Shown here one piece after another: positions 14,049-28,500 of a stretch of 64,000 nucleotides of DNA. Positions within the stretch are counted from its first letter, which is position 1; every line of letters starts with the position of its first letter. The translations under genes and the position numbers were made by a program. This DNA is from Microthyrium microscopicum (taxonomy: Eukaryota), in assembly GCA_010405405.1 (NCBI GenBank), contig MU004234.1, forward strand, positions 1,949,275-2,013,274, in the 5' to 3' direction. The notes under the pieces were generated by a model. It saw only the letters and a program-made list of their open reading frames with translations. It made no database searches and had not been told where the DNA came from.

Positions 14049-14167
14049 ACGTACGGCCATAGGTCGAAGAATACAAGGCGTCCCGTCCGCTCCGCCCTAT
14101 TTAAGCTTCGAACCGGTAGATTAGTATTGCGGTGGGTGACCACGTGAGAATCCCTACTGCTGTACGT
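14049..14167 (+). rRNA. Dispersed 5S rRNA gene
   Basis: 119 nt. Terminal helix ACGTACGGC/GCTGTACGT, conserved TCCCGTCCGCTC, TTAAGC, TTAGTA and GGTGGGTGACCAC..GAATCC. T-rich terminator right after; TATA-like at about -30. Confidence 0.95.
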
Positions 14168-15612
14168 TTATTTTTTGCCTTTTGATGATGTTTTTTTTGC
14201 TTCATAACTTCATTCAATTGTTGTTGATGTTGTATTTTGGAGGTAGAGAATACCTGAAACGATCTGATCGGAAGGATTCGCTTTTTTGCTGGGATTGAAA
14301 TCCTTCTATATACAAGGGAGAGTACTATTACCCACAAAGTTGGGCTCATGTCTGCCAACCCTGTCGTTCATCCATTTACGGTACTGTACTTATGCTTCCA
14401 GGTACAGAGCAACAGGCTTGATTGGTCGCAATTCTCCATCAAATCAGCAATCCAGGCGCTGAACGCCACTCTTTTCCGGCTTGTGGGCCTTGTGGGCTCT
14501 GATTTCGTGTTTGCGGGCGGCGGCGCGAGCCTCCCGTGTCTTGCGCCAACTCCTTTCCCTCTGAAGATAACATTCGACGACTAAGTTATCAGAGCACCCT
14601 CTTCTGGTACTGAAACTATCACCTAGCCATCACTCTATCTCGATGTCCAATTTTGTTCCGTTCATATTGCAATTGTCGGTGCCGTGGCTGTCTAGACCCT
14701 GATGGCCATTGGATGAGCAAACCCCGAGTTACAGCACGTCGCGTGAGCGATACCTTACTATGTACCTATTCAAACAAACGGATAGTTTACATGCGCTTCT
14801 ACGCTCCTTTACCCTAAAGTCGAACGTTGGTTTCGTTATTCAGGTAGGTATGACCTTATCACTGGCTCTAAAAGGCTGTCATAGGCAAATAGTCTCAAAT
14901 TCCAGAAGCTCGATCACACAACTTACATAATGACCGCCTCAACCGACCACCAACCGCTTCATGGCCTTCAATAGGATTGAAGCGGCCTCAGCCCAGGCAG
15001 TCTCGAACTGTCATTGGTATGGGGTAGGAGCATGTTCGATGGCAGTATAAGCTTTCAGCCTCGTCGTCAGCTTGAAGACAAGACCACTATAATCTTGTCA
15101 TAAGCCTGGTCATTTTGTGACGCTAATAGGCTTTTTTGCTTGTTTCTATATGCGAAACTCCATGCAATACGGATCCTACATGCGGCCTCGTCGATATCGG
15201 CGATTGCCATCAGCCTGATCAGTTGAGCCGCAAATATGAGGGCGCAACTGGGCCGGCCAGTGGGAGCCAGCGCTTCCAGGTCGCATTTCAATCGAGCAAT
15301 AGTGTCCTGCAGCCTCTTCTGAAAGTTACCGAGAATCATAAAAGAGGCAACGAAATCGAACCACCGGCCACTTTTCTCCCCCTCTCTGGGCGCGAACAAG
15401 CCCAGCTGGTTGGTCACCACACCTTCAGTAGGCTTTCCGAGATGGACAGCCAGAAATGGGCCTCCAGCCTCACAATTATGGTCGCGTTCCTATTTTGCGT
15501 CATTAAAGCAGATCTTCGCTATTGAAAGGAACGCAAGATCATACTCTACTTCTTCTTCAAAGCTTTGAACGTTTCACTCCATATCACATATTGCAAGCTG
15601 GTCTCCGTTGCC

Positions 15613-18600
15613 ATGACTTCGCAAACCGTACGCGACAGATTGTCCGAGGTTGCCAAGAGGCACACATCTCTTCAAAAAGTATTGGCCGCGCTTGGGCGAT
15701 CAACCTCGCGACAGCCTGACCAATCCGATTTCAACACTACGAGGTCTGTCACCAATGATTTCAGCGCCCAAGCACAGCATGAAGGTCAGGTCGGACAGAC
15801 GGGTGCTAATGGCAAACCAAACTGGATAATCGAACACGGCGACGTGGAAGCCCAGGACGCTCAGCCTCACGAGGAACGCCCTGCTTTGCCAACTACTACC
15901 CAAAACAACGCACCAACTGAGGGAGTGGAGGGTCTTCCTATAACAACAGTACCCCAACGACAGAACACGAACTCAATACGCTCAGAGTATGACAAGCTAA
16001 AGGACGAAGTGAACCTGAAGATGGATGAAAACTTGATTGGATTGGATGGAAAGCAACATTACTTACCTGAACCTGATGCCGACTCTTTTGTTTTCGATAA
16101 GAGGATCAAGGCAGCATTGCCTGATGCTACAGAAGCGCTAGTTCAATTCATTGTTGAACAGGCGCCAAAGACTTTCTTGATTACGCTACTTTCAGTGGAA
16201 AACGCAGAAAAGGCACTACTAGCCATGCAGGCGTTTCAAAACCACAGTTTCACCGACAAATATCTTCCAGTTGCATACCTGACCACGACGGACACGACCA
16301 CACCTCTCAAGCCTACTCAGATATGCAGTCATGATTGGGAGAGCGAGGAGGATCACTGTCACCACTGCCACCCGGGCAGTGATGCTGTGTATTATGGGCA
16401 CCAATGTCAATACAAAGAGCCACTCTCCGCATTCCATCATGTTTGTTGGGGTCGTAGCCGCTTTAAGGATTTCTATACCAAGCAGTGGTCTTTCTGTTTC
16501 CAAAAGTTTGACACAGAAGTGTTCCAGTACGACCCAATCGAAGATAAGCGTGTAATTCCAGTCTTTATTGCCAAGGAAGCCAGTGGGAAAATGGGCAACT
16601 TCAGCGATGTGCAAGCGGCTTGGATGCTCAAGGATTACTTGATATTGAAAGATGAATTCATGAACCAAGGAAGTGAAGATACAACTCCATTAATACCCGA
16701 CATAGCTCCGGGACAGAAAACGCTGAGTGTGGCGATCAAGACCTTGAAGAATTTGCCTGAAAAAGACTACAACATTAGGCAGGAATGGAGGAGAGAATCA
16801 CAGGCGCACAAAGATCTAAACGAGCTTCGCAACGAACATATTATCAAGGGATTTGCGGCATTTGCGCAAGATGGAAAGTACCACTTACTTCTAGAGTGGG
16901 CGGACGGGGGCAGTCTTCAAGATTTCTGGAAAAGTAATCCCACACCGCAAATCAGTACATCTCATATGAAAGAGCTGCTCACTCAACTACTTGGTCTCGC
17001 GGATGCACTTCACTGCATGCACACCACGAAGCGTGCCAGATCACCTGGTGGCGGTCGCAGTCGTCGTGGCTCTTCAGTAAGCCATAAAAGTGCCAAAGAT
17101 TACCAACCTGGCGCAATGGACGGCAAAGACGCGCCAAGAGGACGTCCTTTTCCGACTGTACTCGTTGAGAGCCCCCCGGAAGAGGAGCACGGCATTCAGA
17201 TAAACATTGAAGGAGAAAACGGCAACCGGATTGCGCATAAGGAAAACTCGGGCTTCGAAAACTGGCGACATGGTGATATCAAGCCAGATAATATACTCCT
17301 TTTCAAGGACGATGCAAAATGGCTGGGTACTTTGAAATTGGCGGATCTGGGAAGAGCCAAGCTTCATAAGGAAGTCACCAGTAAGAGAAAATTTATTGAG
17401 ATTGACAAATGGCATACACAGAAGTATGAGCCGCCCGACGTTTTCATCGGTCAAGGCGATCACTCAATGTCACGACTTTACGACATATGGTCTCTGGGAT
17501 GCGTCTTCCTTGAGGCTCTTGTGTGGGTGCTCTATGGCGAGACAGAGCTGCATAAGTTTATTGCCACAACGGAGATCGCAGCCGCTCAAGGAACACCCTT
17601 CTGGACACGAAGAGGGCGGGCAGGTGCCAAAGTCAGTGAAATTGCAACTATGTGGATGGGGCACATTCTCGAGCTGGATCCTGAATGTTCAGGCGGCAAG
17701 CGAACTGCAATCAGTGAGCTTTTGACGCTAATCAAAGACAAGATGCTTGTTGTGAAGTTGCCAACAAATACTGACCAGCCAGCGAAGGGCGATCGAATCA
17801 ATGCCCAAATGCTGGAGGCTGAGCTCCAGAGAATTCTTGAACGGGGAGAACAAGATGAAACCTATCTATGTACGTGTCAGCTGCTTCGAGACAAAAGAAC
17901 TTCCGAGCACCTCTACAGGCCAAGCGATAGCTCGGAAACATCACTGCACATCTTATAATTGATCGTAGCCAAGACTAATTTTGACATAGGGACGAAAGCG
18001 GACCGAGCAAATGTCAGGCTTCCACCCTTTGGCACAGCAGCAATAGAATCGTTGGAGCAGACACCTCTGCATGCGAGTGACGGAGCTCGCCCAGCATTCT
18101 TAGAGATCCCGGGTAATGTCAGAAACCCATCTGCCACGACGGTACGGCGCAACAATACATACAGTCATAATATGAACAGTAGATGGGACCTCATTGTGGA
18201 TGATATTTTCTCAGAAGAGACACTAAAATTGGTCTTGAAGGATTCTCATGATCATTCTGAATACTTTGACGTTCAGAGCCAGATTTGCGACGTTTGCTCC
18301 AGTTTAGATCTAAGTCAGCCAGAAGCATATCCTACGCGCACAGTATCAAACCTCGAGCTTGGTTCCGAGGATGGGTGCGAGCTGTGTGGCATGATACTTA
18401 GGAAAGCAAAAGCTGCGGGACTTGGAGCTGATGATCCAGTTACCCTGATGCAAGGAGCGGGAAGAATCAATCTCAACGGGCGAGAATCGGCTGCTCTACG
18501 TGTCTGCTGCTATTATGGTAAGTTCACCCGCGGTTTATCAACTGCTACTACCAGAATACAAACTAACAGCAAAGTTAGATACATCATTTGAAGGCCCCCA

Positions 18601-22857: not shown

Positions 22858-24491
22858 ATTTGCATAAAGAAATTTGACCTAAAAAAACAACAAAAACTTG
22901 ATCTATCTCCAATAAGATATGGCTGCTTTATGTAACACAATGCGGAAAACTATATATCAATTGACTAGGGGTTGATTTACTCAACAACCTCTTTTCTCTC
23001 TCAGTTGCGTCACTGTACCATTTGGCGCCAGTCAAGGTACTCCGCGATCTAACATGTATGTAAGCATTAAAGCTAAGCCCCTGAAGCGCTGTCACTGGCC
23101 TGATAGATGAACATCAAGAGATGCTTGGGCTTACATGGCCACGTACTTCTGAGAAACACGACTCGGGGGATCAATTAGGCAACCGCGAAAAGTTGAACGG
23201 AGGCTGAACAATCGAGGCACGTTCTAAGTAACCTGTACTCGGCGTAATTCTTAGAATGTAACCAAGACGCGAGAATTGAGTGGTGATATTGAAGCTTATA
23301 GAGCGTCAAGAAACAATAATGAAGTACTATTTACTACTAATTGGGCGCATTACTGGGTTATAATTGCCTCTTATTTGTCACAGCCATAGAAAATTGACAT
23401 TGAAAGAAATTTCAAAGTTTTCTTGCAATTCCCATTGTCGGTTTTGACTAGTACAGAAGAACATGTTGATAAAGTTCGGTCTACGCACTCAACCAGCATT
23501 ATTCTACATGATGTATGTCTTGAATTACTACATATTAGACGGAATAATGGGCATTGTCAAAGGGAGACTGGCATGACAAGTGAAGTTTTCTGTCACTAGC
23601 AAGTGTCTGAGCTTAATTCGCATTTTGCTGATCTTATTGTTTGAATGAATGGACAAGAGATTGAGAATCCGGTCTGTGAAATAATGTGTAAATGGCTAGA
23701 TCGGTGAGGCTCGTAGCGGCTTAACTACTTCGGGTGGGGATCGATTCAAGGTATATTCTTGGGACCTCTTTTCCATCCCTAGCATTAAATATCTGACGCG
23801 TAATGGTGTTTTTTTGGTCTGGTTGATGAAACAAGGAGGAATGTATTGTGCATTTAGGCAACAGCCTATCTGCGTCCTCAAAATTGATTGTAGAGTTACC
23901 AGCAACGTGAAAGCCTGATTATGAGATATGGGAAAGTAGTATCGAGAATGCTTTATCTGATTTTACTTAGGTGTCCAGGTATAGACGGTCTACAAGTAGT
24001 CTCATTTTCTACTCAGATCTCTAAACATTCGAATAAATTACCCCTTGAAATTGGATATCGATCCTCTCATGACAAACTGAGGCACAAACCGCCCACAAAA
24101 GGCGTAAATACACTACTAGTACCTTATTCTTTAAGTCGGTAGGTATCCCTTATATGTCTGAAATAAGGTCCCTAACGTAAACAGGTCAAATTCTTCTCCT
24201 ATTCTCGGGGAGAAGTATGGCGTCCGTAGATAAATAGGTAAAGTTGTTACAAATAATGTAGTGAGTGCTACATACACAGTAATACTTTATATTGAAAAGA
24301 GGCTCGTAGACTTCCAATTGATAATAGTTGGAGTAGAAAGAGAATAATACAGGAAAGATAGTTTGATAGGGTGGGTAAATAGTGTATATAATATAAACAA
24401 AAACAGCAAAATTTTGGTTCATATTGTTCGTTGAAAGTACACTTTAAACGTCAGCTTTCTTGGTCTAGTCGGTTATGACGTCGGTCTCATA

Positions 24492-24520
24492 TAACCACAT
24501 GATTGCGTTTAACGCAAGCT
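24492..24520 (+). other. Canonical tRNA (TSEN-type) intron at position 37/38, 29 nt
   Basis: Starts one base 3' of anticodon CAT. Contains ATGA complementary to the anticodon loop and the inverted repeat TTGCGTT-T-AACGCAA. Confidence 0.85.
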
Positions 24521-24551
24521 ATCCGAAGGTCGCCAGTTCGATTCTGGCAGA

Positions 24552-24603
24552 GTAAGTTCTATCAAACAACTGATTTGAGTGCTTTATCTAACGATTTCAC
24601 TAG
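24552..24603 (+). other. Spliceosomal-type (U2) intron inside the tRNA-Met acceptor stem, 52 nt
   Basis: GTAAGT donor at 24552, CTAAC branch at 24588-24592, TAG acceptor at 24601-24603. Removal gives AGAGAGC-A, which pairs fully with GCTTTCT. Confidence 0.85.
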
Positions 24604-24625
24604 GAGCATATATCAAAGCAATTTG

Positions 24626-24634
24626 TTTTTTTTT
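24626..24634 (+). terminator. RNA polymerase III terminator (T9) of the tRNA-Met gene
   Basis: First run of four or more T downstream of the tRNA start, 17 nt after discriminator A73 (24608). Confidence 0.8.
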
Positions 24635-25599
24635 GGTCTTTAGAGTACGGTAGTCTCTAGAGTCTAAATACTGGTAGGTACATGGCAGTACATACCGGTA
24701 GCATCCTCCCCTTCGCAGTGCAGGGGCCAAACATCTTGATAGTAACAATCATGAGGCTCCTTACTCTATTATAGCTTTTAGTACCTTAACAGTTCTCTTA
24801 ATTTTGTGGATTTGCTCTGAGATAAGCTTGACCCCCCAATAACACTGTAGTAAGCACAAGGTTACGCTGACTCATTTACCCATTTTCGCTGTTTTCGACA
24901 ACCTCACCAGCAAGGACCAGCGGTTCAGCGTGTATGATAGGTTATTTTCAGCCATTTATGCGCCATGGATCTCATTAACTGGACCCTGACAAGGATGCGG
25001 TGTTAACAACCGAGATCTTTTACACTTTTACACGTTGAGAACGTGAGTCGCAAAAGCGATCTGCATGGGGCATTTCCCGAATTATCCGCTGCTTCATGAG
25101 TAAACCCCTCTGCGAACTACTCTCCTCCGTGACTCCATCCCTCATCTTGACCACATAGATTTTCCGTTTCTTATTGCTTGCGATTCGTATGTGTTTTGAC
25201 TTTCTGTCGTACTCTTATTTCCTCAGGAACCGCTTGTGACACAGACCTGCTCTTGCCGTATCACCTCTCTCCTACTCCGTACCCCACGATCAAAGACCTC
25301 CGATATCTTGCACCCATACACAACCACTTAGAAATAGTTTATCGACCTTGAGGGGCAGCCAATCCTACACTCAGCTATCCTGAACTCCTGCACTGATACA
25401 AGCTCTTTCATCGCTTGTGTATTCCTCAAAGCCCCACTATCCTCCGGGGATATCCGCACGGTGGCCGCGATCCAGACTTACAACCTATCGCCGTTGGAAG
25501 CGCTCATCATCCATTAAATGAGAGCTTGACATCAGTGGCAGATTTGTTAAACTTGAAACCTAAGGTTATCACTATCAAAAGAATTGCTGTCACGTCGCC

Positions 25600-28500
25600 A
25601 TGGGACCCGATGCAGTTCGTGAGAGAGACTTGAATCGGTAAGCTTGCTAATCACTCGCGTGAAAGGCACAACATTTACACACTTTCCAGATACTACCAAC
25701 CGTATAAGAATGCTCAATCCCTCAAATCCTACTCCCCTGCCGTAACTCCGGAGGAAAATCGGCACAATTCCCTCTGGTCAATTATTCCAGAAGATTACAA
25801 ACCACAGTTTAGTTCAGATCGAGCTCTTACAGCTTTTGCCCAGCTCGCAACTTTACGCCTGGGAGTAAGAAGATGTATAGTATCGCTCATAGACTCGAAG
25901 AACCAATACATCTTGACAGAGGCGACTCGAACACTAAGTCTCTCTCGGCACACCATCGACAATGATGATGACAAAGTCTGGCTCGGAAAGAGTGTTCTCA
26001 ATCGTGGCGATGCCATGTGCGAGAACGTTCTGGAAACTACATACACCGCGTACGACGAACAGGGTCGCCCATATACTGGAGATGGCCTGGTAGTCGAGGA
26101 CATGACTAAGGATGACCGCTTCAAAGACAAGCCTTTTGTCCTTAACGAACCATGCATTCAATTTTACGCAGGCGTGCCCATACGCTCAAGAAGTGGTCAT
26201 ACAATTGGATCATACGCATGCTCACATAACAAGCCACGACCTGGGGGACTTACCCTCGAGGAATTTCGCTTTATGCAGGATATGGCTGAAACAGTGATGG
26301 ACCACCTTGAGATGCTCCGCGATCGTGAGGATAGAACCAAGGGAGAGCGCATGATTCGAGGACTTTCCGAGTTCATAGAAGGCTCATGCGCTTTGGGACG
26401 TCCAGCCCCGAGTCAACCGAATAGCTACGCTACAAAATTAGCTCCACTGAACGGTACTCCGACCACTGCCGTCAATACAGTCTTAAACCGCCAGACGGAA
26501 AACCTGAGGACCTTGGAGGATGACTTGGAAAGTCCTCCAGCTTTAGTAGACACAGATGGTCCAAGTAAACTATCAGGACCAAAGGCTACCAAAAGAGTCG
26601 TGCAGCCTCCTCCATCAAACCCTACATGTATCTTCTATCGGGCTGCTGATCTGATCAGAAAATCTACATATGCAGATGGTGCCGTGTTCTTCAGGGCAAT
26701 AGGACCGACTCTACGAGCAAAGATTCCCGATAAGAATACTAGCAGTGATGAAACATCCTTCGATGACTCGCAGTCTGGGACCTCCGGCAGTGAGACTATC
26801 CTCTCTTCTGCAAGTGGCAAGCCTGTGCTATCAAGAGGACCTCGGTTCACTACTCAAAGGCCGAAGAAGATTAAACCTACGGAGCGCGAGGAAGTGAAGC
26901 ACTGCGAGGTTTTGGGTCTCTCAATATCCGAGAACGCTCCTGGAGAAGACAGTTTGGGAGTCAGGGACTTTCAATTCTCGGAACGCAGCATGGAGAAATA
27001 CATAAAAAAGTTTCCGTACGGCAAGTTCTTTAGCTTTACTGAGTTCGGATCTGGTGTTTCTTCTGGCGACGACAAGTCTGAGCACGAACCCCAATCTACG
27101 GAACCTGCAAGTAACGGCACGATAAACGGCCACAGGTTATCAAATGAAGTCGTCAAACCAGGTTCGAAGAAGAGACAGAGTTTTTTGCCCACTGAGCTTT
27201 TAAAGATTCTACCAGGAGTTCGAACATTAATATTCTTACCCCTTTGGGATCCAGCTGCTGAGCGCTGGATTGCTGGTGGCTTTATCTGGACAAGCAAAGC
27301 CGGTGCTTTACTGAGTCCTCACAATGAATTGCCATATTTGAAGGCATTTGGAAACAGCATTACCAGCGAGTATGCTCGAATGAATGCATTGATTTCTGAC
27401 AGAGCAAAGTCAGACTTCATCTCCAGTGTAAGTCACTCAATTTCTTTCAAGTTTCAGTAACTAATTGCTTGTATAGATCAGCCACGAGACTAGATCTCCG
27501 TTACACGGCATCCTTGGTTCAGTCGAATTCCTTCAAGAGACTGAGTTGAGTCAATATCAAGCCGGACTCGTGACTTCGGTCAACACGTGCGCCAAAACTT
27601 TGCTGGAAACGCTCGAATCTATACTAGACTATTCCAAAATCAACAAACTATATACTCGTGATCGTAATCAAAGACGCCTCGAAACACGATTGAAAAAACG
27701 GGATACCGAAAATTCCATCATGGGACCTGCTGCTGATGTGGACTTGCATCAGCTTCTCGAAGAAGTGGCGGAGTCTGTATGTGCCGGGCATGCATTCAGG
27801 GAGACCCATAATACCGGTGCTGGATATCCCACAGAAAATTCGAAAACGCCAGATAGCGCCTGCAACCTTCGGCACGTCGCTGTGTCGCTGGAGATTGCTC
27901 CAAAGATGAAGAATCTGGTCAGGACCCAACCTGGTGCGATACGCAGAATTGTGATGAACTTGCTAGGCAACAGTCTCAAATATACTCAAAATGGATATAT
28001 CTCAGTTGTCATGAAGGCCCAACAATCGCCCACGGATCCTACTATGGCTGATGTTGAAATGACGTTTGCGGATACTGGAAAGGGCATGTCTCTTGAGTAT
28101 CAACGGACACGAATGTTCTCGCCCTTTTCACAAGAGGATCCGTTCGCAGATGGAACAGGTCTTGGCTTGTCTATTGTACGCCAAATTGTCGATTCTCTCG
28201 GAGGACATATTGATATTTGCAGCACAAAAGACGTCGGTACAACTGTTGACGTTCATCTTACTCTTCCCTTGCCAGAAAATCTCCCGGCGGATGAGTTTAC
28301 TGAAGTCTACAATATGGCGAAGGGTAAGAAATTATCTCTGGCTGGCGCAAATGCCTGCCCAAAATACCTTGGTCCTTGCCTAAAGGCCCTCCAATGCAAC
28401 ATAGAAGAGTGGTTTGGCATGGAGCTTGTACCATGTCCGGATAGTTTTGACACTATCAATGGCGATGCTGTAATCTGCCATGAGACTCTCCCCGATTTCA

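Follow-up and report, generated by a model that had tools for sequence, protein, structure and literature searches.

The reading that we favour, with moderate confidence, for a 155-bp gene in the window (the whole stretch of DNA analysed here, 64 kb) is that of an expressed elongator-type tRNA-Met(CAU) gene, from an ascomycete resembling Dothideomycetes, with an intron at position 37/38, a genuine spliceosomal intron that splits its acceptor strand between tRNA positions 68 and 69, and an RNA that matures by a spliceosome-first pathway. The tRNA-Met encoded there probably requires the mRNA-splicing machinery for its maturation. The support is drawn from one locus and from one contig of one public run, X1, in which the molecule type is a guess (RNA). 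The gene is located in the spacer between a transporter (MFS) gene on the reverse strand on one side and a hybrid histidine-kinase gene on the forward strand on the other.

Layout of the gene and its metagenomic relatives

The gene was delimited at 24454-24608 of the forward strand, on which all of its parts lie, from the sequence and from the ARAGORN cloverleaf; tRNA numbering was taken from the cloverleaf of the variant without the 52 nt discussed below. Exon 1 (24454-24491), placed by ARAGORN in the same variant, contains tRNA positions 1-37, which comprise the 5' acceptor strand, the D arm with the A box, and the anticodon CAT. It is followed by the 37/38 intron of 29 nt (24492-24520), which contains a 6-bp hairpin, was assigned from ARAGORN, folding, and the relatives, and is kept in the X1 contig. 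Exon 2 (24521-24551; ARAGORN and alignment) contains positions 38-68: the 3' side of the anticodon stem, the variable loop, the T arm with the B box, and 3 nt of the 3' acceptor strand. The 52-nt GT..AG insert (24552-24603; sequence and X1 joint) separates positions 68 and 69, and exon 3 (24604-24608; ARAGORN and X1 contig) has just 5 nt, positions 69-73, which are the final four nucleotides of the acceptor stem and the discriminator A. Downstream in the sequence are a 17-nt trailer (24609-24625) and a T9 run resembling a Pol III terminator (24626-24634). An earlier reading made from the sequence alone had described a 155-bp gene with both introns, a 5-nt last exon, and a 17-nt trailer, and all of these are present where it had placed them. 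The 7-nt inverted repeat that it had noted in the 29-nt intron is also real; in RNA form it is limited to 6 bp round a 3-nt loop.

This arrangement conceals the gene from routine detection. In the untouched 64-kb window, ARAGORN reported zero tRNAs, either in default mode or with introns allowed. When four in-silico variants were submitted, a 74-nt tRNA-Met(CAT) was called in two, exactly those without 24552-24603, and no tRNA was called in the two that retained these positions. The Rfam tRNA model in sensitive mode matched 24454-24554 (101 nt, 36.1 bits versus a gathering score of 29), and the match ends at the insert. The gene was missed by Rfam at default settings, which use fast filters, and no additional tRNA emerged when Rfam was run over the entire window at E up to 1. 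Once the 52 nt are taken out, a 7-bp acceptor stem and a cloverleaf with anticodon CAT are present according to ARAGORN. The cloverleaf assignment relies on ARAGORN and not on minimum free energy folding, since the minimum free energy fold of the 74-nt mature form has the acceptor and T arms and a D/anticodon region that is not a cloverleaf. As a separate observation, the minimum free energy fold of the unspliced precursor pairs 24454-24464 (the 5' acceptor strand and positions 8-11) with 24599-24607 (the end of the intron and the 3' exon); this helix, which is a prediction only, would enclose the 3' splice site and bring the two ends together.

Relatives were sought in metagenome contigs with 28 nt of exon 1 as the query, which yielded four loci (L001-L004) with three distinct sequences. 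ARAGORN called a tRNA-Met(CAT) with one intron in each of the four. This is the intron at position 37/38, one base 3' of the anticodon, which is the ordinary position of eukaryotic tRNA introns; it is present at the same place in all four relatives with a length of 31-33 nt (alignment and ARAGORN). Across the five tRNA-Met genes, the sequences of these 37/38 introns differ (29-33 nt), and each has its own short hairpin in the 3' half. The second intron is absent from all four relatives, in which a T run directly ends the gene, and the insert accordingly appears, from the sequences compared, to bear no sign of being old or conserved. From position 4 onward, exon 1 is identical to that of L001-L004, with differences at positions 2 and 3 only.

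The comparison identifies exactly two acceptor pairs that differ between the window and all four relatives, 2-71 and 3-70, and both are changed on both strands. The relatives have T2-A71 and C3-G70, and the window has C2-G71 and T3-A70, with the 3' partners located behind the 52-nt intron. Two compensated pairs indicate past selection for the pairing of the separated strands, although these changes could predate the intron and would then prove past, not present, function.

This evidence bears on an unlikely alternative that nevertheless deserves weight, namely that the gene is a retired tRNA copy that now supplies exon 1 of a short non-coding RNA made by Pol II (approximately 24442-24869). The intron would then be real, no working tRNA would be made, other copies would supply tRNA-Met, and the acceptor stem would be restored merely because the gene had been intact when the intron entered it. 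Several elongator tRNA-Met genes are usual in a fungal genome, and the four relatives do without the second intron. However, decay would be expected in a retired copy, and the tRNA body is undamaged: positions 4-69 are identical in L001, L003, and L004, the T31/T39 mismatch included, and in L002 the T stem alone differs. The compensation of both acceptor differences likewise argues against retirement.

Splicing signals of the 52-nt insert

The insert begins with GT (24552-24553) within a GTAAGT donor (24552-24557) and ends with AG (24602-24603) within a TAG acceptor (24601-24603). A CTAAC branch motif is present at 24588-24592, with the branch A placed 12 nt before the 3' end. The placement is ambiguous by one base, as 24552-24603 (GT..AG) and the same interval shifted by one to the right give an identical product.

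These signals resemble those of introns elsewhere in the window. Matches to the strict pattern GTAAGT..CTAAC..YAG number 10 in the window, whereas 30 shuffles gave 1.2 on average and at most 5. A loose intron pattern is unenriched (63 in the window versus a mean of 69.7 in shuffles), and thus weight is given to the strict pattern alone. Its nine other matches are 43-96 nt long, and their branch-to-end distances are 8-15 nt; the tRNA insert, with 52 and 12, falls in the middle of these ranges. Five of these nine connect open frames that reach 61 aa or more to either side, and hence they are in all likelihood genuine introns of protein-coding genes. The frames that flank the tRNA insert have just 16 and 15 aa, which amounts to no coding frame.

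The short GTAAGT..CTAAC introns, a HET domain gene, and a lone 5S rRNA gene (14049-14168; Rfam, 85.9 bits) identify the source of the window as a filamentous ascomycete; dispersed 5S genes are usual in this group. The best named relatives of a cap methyltransferase encoded in the window are from Dothideomycetes (such as Lepidopterella, Aplosporella, and Coniosporium), with only 57-61% identity. Two further features were observed in these surroundings. Three T runs follow the 5S gene: T6 immediately at its end, T4, and T8 22 nt downstream (14049-14198). Between 15526 and 19426, a frame with a protein-kinase domain is directly followed by a HET (heterokaryon incompatibility) frame, with a likely 61-nt intron at 18518-18578, and the two may be one kinase-HET gene.

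The role of chance was assessed with 40000 shuffles of 24549-24720, the 172 nt behind the T arm. Some insert of 30-120 nt completes the 7-bp acceptor stem in 7653 of the 40000, and stem completion by itself therefore means little. An acceptor-completing insert with GT..AG ends was obtained in 86 of the 40000 shuffles. With a GTRNGT donor the number is 0 of 40000, and it is likewise 0 when CTRAY..YAG is added. Additionally, the four bases past the junction fixed by X1 pair with positions 4 to 1, as would 1 in 32 four-base words. It is highly improbable that the locus is a broken tRNA pseudogene in which the splice-like signals and the completed stem are coincidental. The frequency of stem completion would allow it, as that result is weak alone, but no shuffle also had the donor, and the exact joined form is found in the X1 contig.

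Introns outside position 37/38, including some in acceptor stems, are known from archaea, red algae, and nucleomorphs (PMC3978253, PMC4090602). If the 52 nt were a non-canonical tRNA intron of this kind, they would be cut by the endonuclease at a bulge-helix-bulge, an explanation to which we give hardly any credence. Among the 10 best of 154 registers scanned at the junctions, none has both sites in bulges. The best register, with 7 of 7 pairs (two of them G-U), breaks the T stem and leaves a product that lacks an acceptor stem. The insert also has a full set of donor, branch, and acceptor resembling those of mRNA introns in the window. From these signals, we infer that the 52-nt insert is a genuine spliceosomal (U2-type GT-AG) intron, for which the spliceosome would be the remover. 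The earlier proposal that the gene needs two unlike removals is upheld, given an ordinary 37/38 intron shared with all four relatives and a 52-nt insert that has spliceosomal signals and no bulge-helix-bulge.

The origin of the insert was considered separately. Introner-like elements of Dothideomycetes are recognised by many near-identical copies in a genome, and no second copy of the insert was found within the window (one match at up to 3 mismatches, and otherwise 11-nt chance hits). Intronization, by which the old 3' end and trailer would have become the donor site, was rejected as an origin; the sole hint, a shared TTC after the acceptor, is too weak.

A spliced contig across the locus and its polymerase

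Run X1 is of type RNA by guess and may be DNA; it holds 0.54 of the words. Its contigs were placed on 23800-25300, and three fit without any difference. One of these (record 2; 376 nt, word depth 25.1) aligns to 24442-24551 and 24604-24869 with no extra letters and no gaps. At its joint, from 24551 to 24604, the 52 nt with GT..AG ends are skipped, with 110 letters on the shorter side. The same contig is unbroken across 24492-24520, and the 29-nt intron is thus retained. Among the X1 contigs placed at the locus, none contains the 52 nt. No X1 cover is present at 23800-24156 and 24871-25125, and such holes prove nothing. Contigs lose rare variants, do not show ends, strand, or level, and can merge overlapping transcripts.

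The sequence-only reading had predicted RNA species that keep only the 37/38 intron, and the single X1 contig over the gene has exactly that form. Its further claim, that spliceosomal splicing comes first, is borne out in part: the contig, from which the 52 nt are gone and in which the 29 nt are kept, agrees with this order, but the RNA type of X1 is itself a guess. For instance, X1 could be a DNA library of a strain or allele without the 52 nt, in which case the joint would be a presence/absence polymorphism and not the product of splicing. The absence of a library on record and the guessed type leave room for this, although it is quite improbable. The three contigs on adjoining single-copy DNA have very unequal depths (4.4, 25.1, and 1005.1), and an 8596-nt contig begins at 25147, with the start codon of the histidine-kinase gene approximately 450 nt further on. 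For these reasons, X1 appears to behave like RNA, that is, like a transcriptome and not a genomic library. Moreover, a DNA deletion with exact GT..AG boundaries would in its own right be the mark left by a spliced RNA that had re-entered the genome as a copy. If X1 were nevertheless DNA, the contig would represent an allele without the intron, and the 52 nt would still be a precise unit, although splicing would not be demonstrated.

Two of the neighbouring contigs have features of their own. The histidine-kinase gene (GAF, HisKA, HATPase, and receiver domains) apparently has a leader of approximately 450 nt in the region 25147-25700, followed by a first coding exon that is very short (ATG near 25601) and, right after it, an intron (GTAAGC near 25639); its X1 contig, at a depth of 1005, has the highest depth seen. 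The third contig (24184-24381; 198 nt, depth 4.4) is upstream of the tRNA gene, where neither an annotated feature nor a long frame is present. Possible identities are a promoter-associated RNA or the 5' end of the transcript from the divergent transporter gene.

Returning to the tRNA gene, the spliced contig starts at 24442 and thereby defines a 12-nt leader (24442-24453). This distance before the mature 5' end is a usual leader length, although the position is a contig end and not proof of the RNA 5' end. A putative promoter-like element, AT-rich and resembling a TATA box (24385-24397, forward strand; 45-57 nt before the first base of the contig), is present upstream, and comparable AT-rich elements occur upstream of the relatives' genes. 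At the other end, the T9 run is 17 nt past the last exon, not past the T arm. Only two runs of at least eight T occur on the forward strand of the 64 kb: this T9 and one located 22 nt past the 5S rRNA gene. The absence of TTTT from 24442-24625 is insignificant (P = 0.24, shuffles), as is its absence from the intron (P = 0.57).

A T9 run is expected to stop Pol III. The spliced contig crosses it and continues for 235 nt beyond, which is 261 nt beyond the 3' end of the tRNA, and the RNA observed is therefore not the short Pol III species. The earlier suggestion that the transcript is made by Pol III, is uncapped, and has a very short 3' exon is still possible, but it is not what this contig represents. 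Contigs can be merged, so that the junction and the far end need not belong to one molecule. The precursor could come from Pol III, in keeping with an internal promoter whose A-box and B-box regions are identical to those of L001, L003, and L004, and with the intact T9; from Pol II or read-through, in keeping with a contig that crosses T9; or from both.

The extent of the contig also bears on the retired copy introduced above. A Pol II non-coding RNA would account for its passage through T9 to 24869, for an AATAAC motif at 24838, approximately 30 nt before the contig end, and for the TATA-like element upstream. However, the T9 run is placed just past the 3' exon in the fashion of a Pol III unit, and the contig offers little that would suggest another role. 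Its longest ATG frame has 38 aa. The part past T9 (24635-24869, forward strand) has no reading frame and belongs to no known RNA family, and Rfam on 24100-25200 at E up to 10 returned, apart from the tRNA, chance-level matches only (DUF805b, NEAT1_2, and U6; 12-14 bits). In the same Rfam search of 24100-25200, no snoRNA partner was found. Furthermore, a tRNA fold within a Pol II RNA remains a substrate of RNase P and RNase Z.

Proposed maturation and known systems

RNase P, RNase Z, the CCA-adding enzyme, and the tRNA exportin recognise the folded tRNA body, including the acceptor stem. Before the 52 nt are removed, the 3' acceptor strand of this gene has only 4 of 7 pairs by sequence. The primary transcript, having no acceptor stem, would not be a proper substrate for these enzymes or for the export machinery. 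The spliceosome would excise the 52 nt in the nucleus and join position 68 to position 69; the acceptor stem would form next and the ends would then be trimmed; and the 29-nt intron would be removed last by the tRNA-splicing endonuclease and a ligase. The spliceosome is nuclear, and the tRNA-splicing endonuclease of those yeasts that have been investigated works late and outside the nucleus. The proposed order of spliceosome, trimming, and endonuclease follows from these two facts together with the need for an acceptor stem. The spliced RNA would presumably go on to function as a tRNA, and the later steps are likewise putative. We consider it an even proposition that this is a working nuclear tRNA gene which matures obligatorily via the spliceosome, by two machineries in a fixed order and possibly from a transcript made by Pol III whose 3' exon would be approximately 26 nt; it would be the first tRNA for which a spliceosomal intron is demonstrated. 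It may be speculated that the supply of tRNA-Met is coupled to spliceosome activity, which hinges on the number of other elongator tRNA-Met genes.

No paper on a spliceosomal intron in a tRNA gene was found in the literature covered, most subscription journals being outside that coverage. Spliceosomal introns are placed in Pol II transcripts in one account, which describes the three intron types as unrelated (PMC12530127). Such introns have nevertheless been reviewed for U6, U2, U5, and U1 snRNA genes and for ascomycete rDNA, and tRNA is absent from the list given in that 2018 review, which calls the determinants of these insertions into non-coding RNA genes unclear (PMC5855946). Among the nearest precedents is U6 of fungi, for example Schizosaccharomyces pombe, in which the spliceosome excises the intron (Tani and Ohshima 1989, 1991, via PMC5855946). 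In both cases, a small non-coding RNA gene of the class usually assigned to Pol III has a short intron whose donor, branch, and acceptor are canonical and which shows no other conservation, and many of the fungal U6 introns look like species-specific insertions (PMC5855946). However, U6 sits within the spliceosome's active site, which has led to an explanation by reverse splicing through proximity, and tRNA has no such proximity. The tRNA-Met gene also differs from U6 in that it has a second intron of another class and in that the spliced RNA crosses a run resembling a Pol III terminator. The spliceosomal introns of Rhodotorula hasegawae U1, U2, and U5 snRNA and of ascomycete rDNA (Takahashi 1993, 1996; Bhattacharya 2000; via PMC5855946) are similar in being GT-AG introns of fungal non-coding RNA genes, and the rDNA cases are from ascomycetes, as is the window; none of the cases described there is a tRNA gene.

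More than one intron per tRNA gene, with one in the acceptor stem, is described for archaea, Cyanidioschyzon merolae, and nucleomorphs (PMC3978253, PMC4090602, PMC4033280). Those introns form a bulge-helix-bulge and are cut by the tRNA endonuclease (PMC3978253). In contrast, the insert described here has spliceosomal signals and no bulge-helix-bulge fit.

A tRNA-like RNA can also be released from a longer transcript, as mascRNA is from MALAT1. The tRNA-Sec of Trypanosoma brucei is derived from a Pol II transcript (PMC2943599), and the present case would be alike if the X1 contig were one Pol II RNA from which the tRNA is cut by RNase P and RNase Z. In the cases of tRNA-Sec, as described there, and mascRNA, there is no spliceosomal intron within the tRNA fold, unlike here. 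Overall, an mRNA-type intron in a non-coding RNA gene is already known, and here it would appear for the first time in a tRNA, beside a tRNA-type intron.

Spliceosomal and tRNA introns are currently treated as separate worlds. If the favoured reading is true, then tRNA joins the few non-coding RNA genes into which mRNA-type introns have moved (U6, U1, U2, U5, and rRNA), and the usual explanation for such invasions, proximity to the spliceosome's active site, is inapplicable to it. The gene would provide a natural test of spliceosome action on Pol III products other than U6 and of RNA folding as a gate on the order of processing steps. As ARAGORN and Rfam at default settings miss it, genes of this kind are absent from routine annotation, and tRNA counts may be too low. 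Split tRNA genes may then be more widespread in fungi and algae than one locus suggests.
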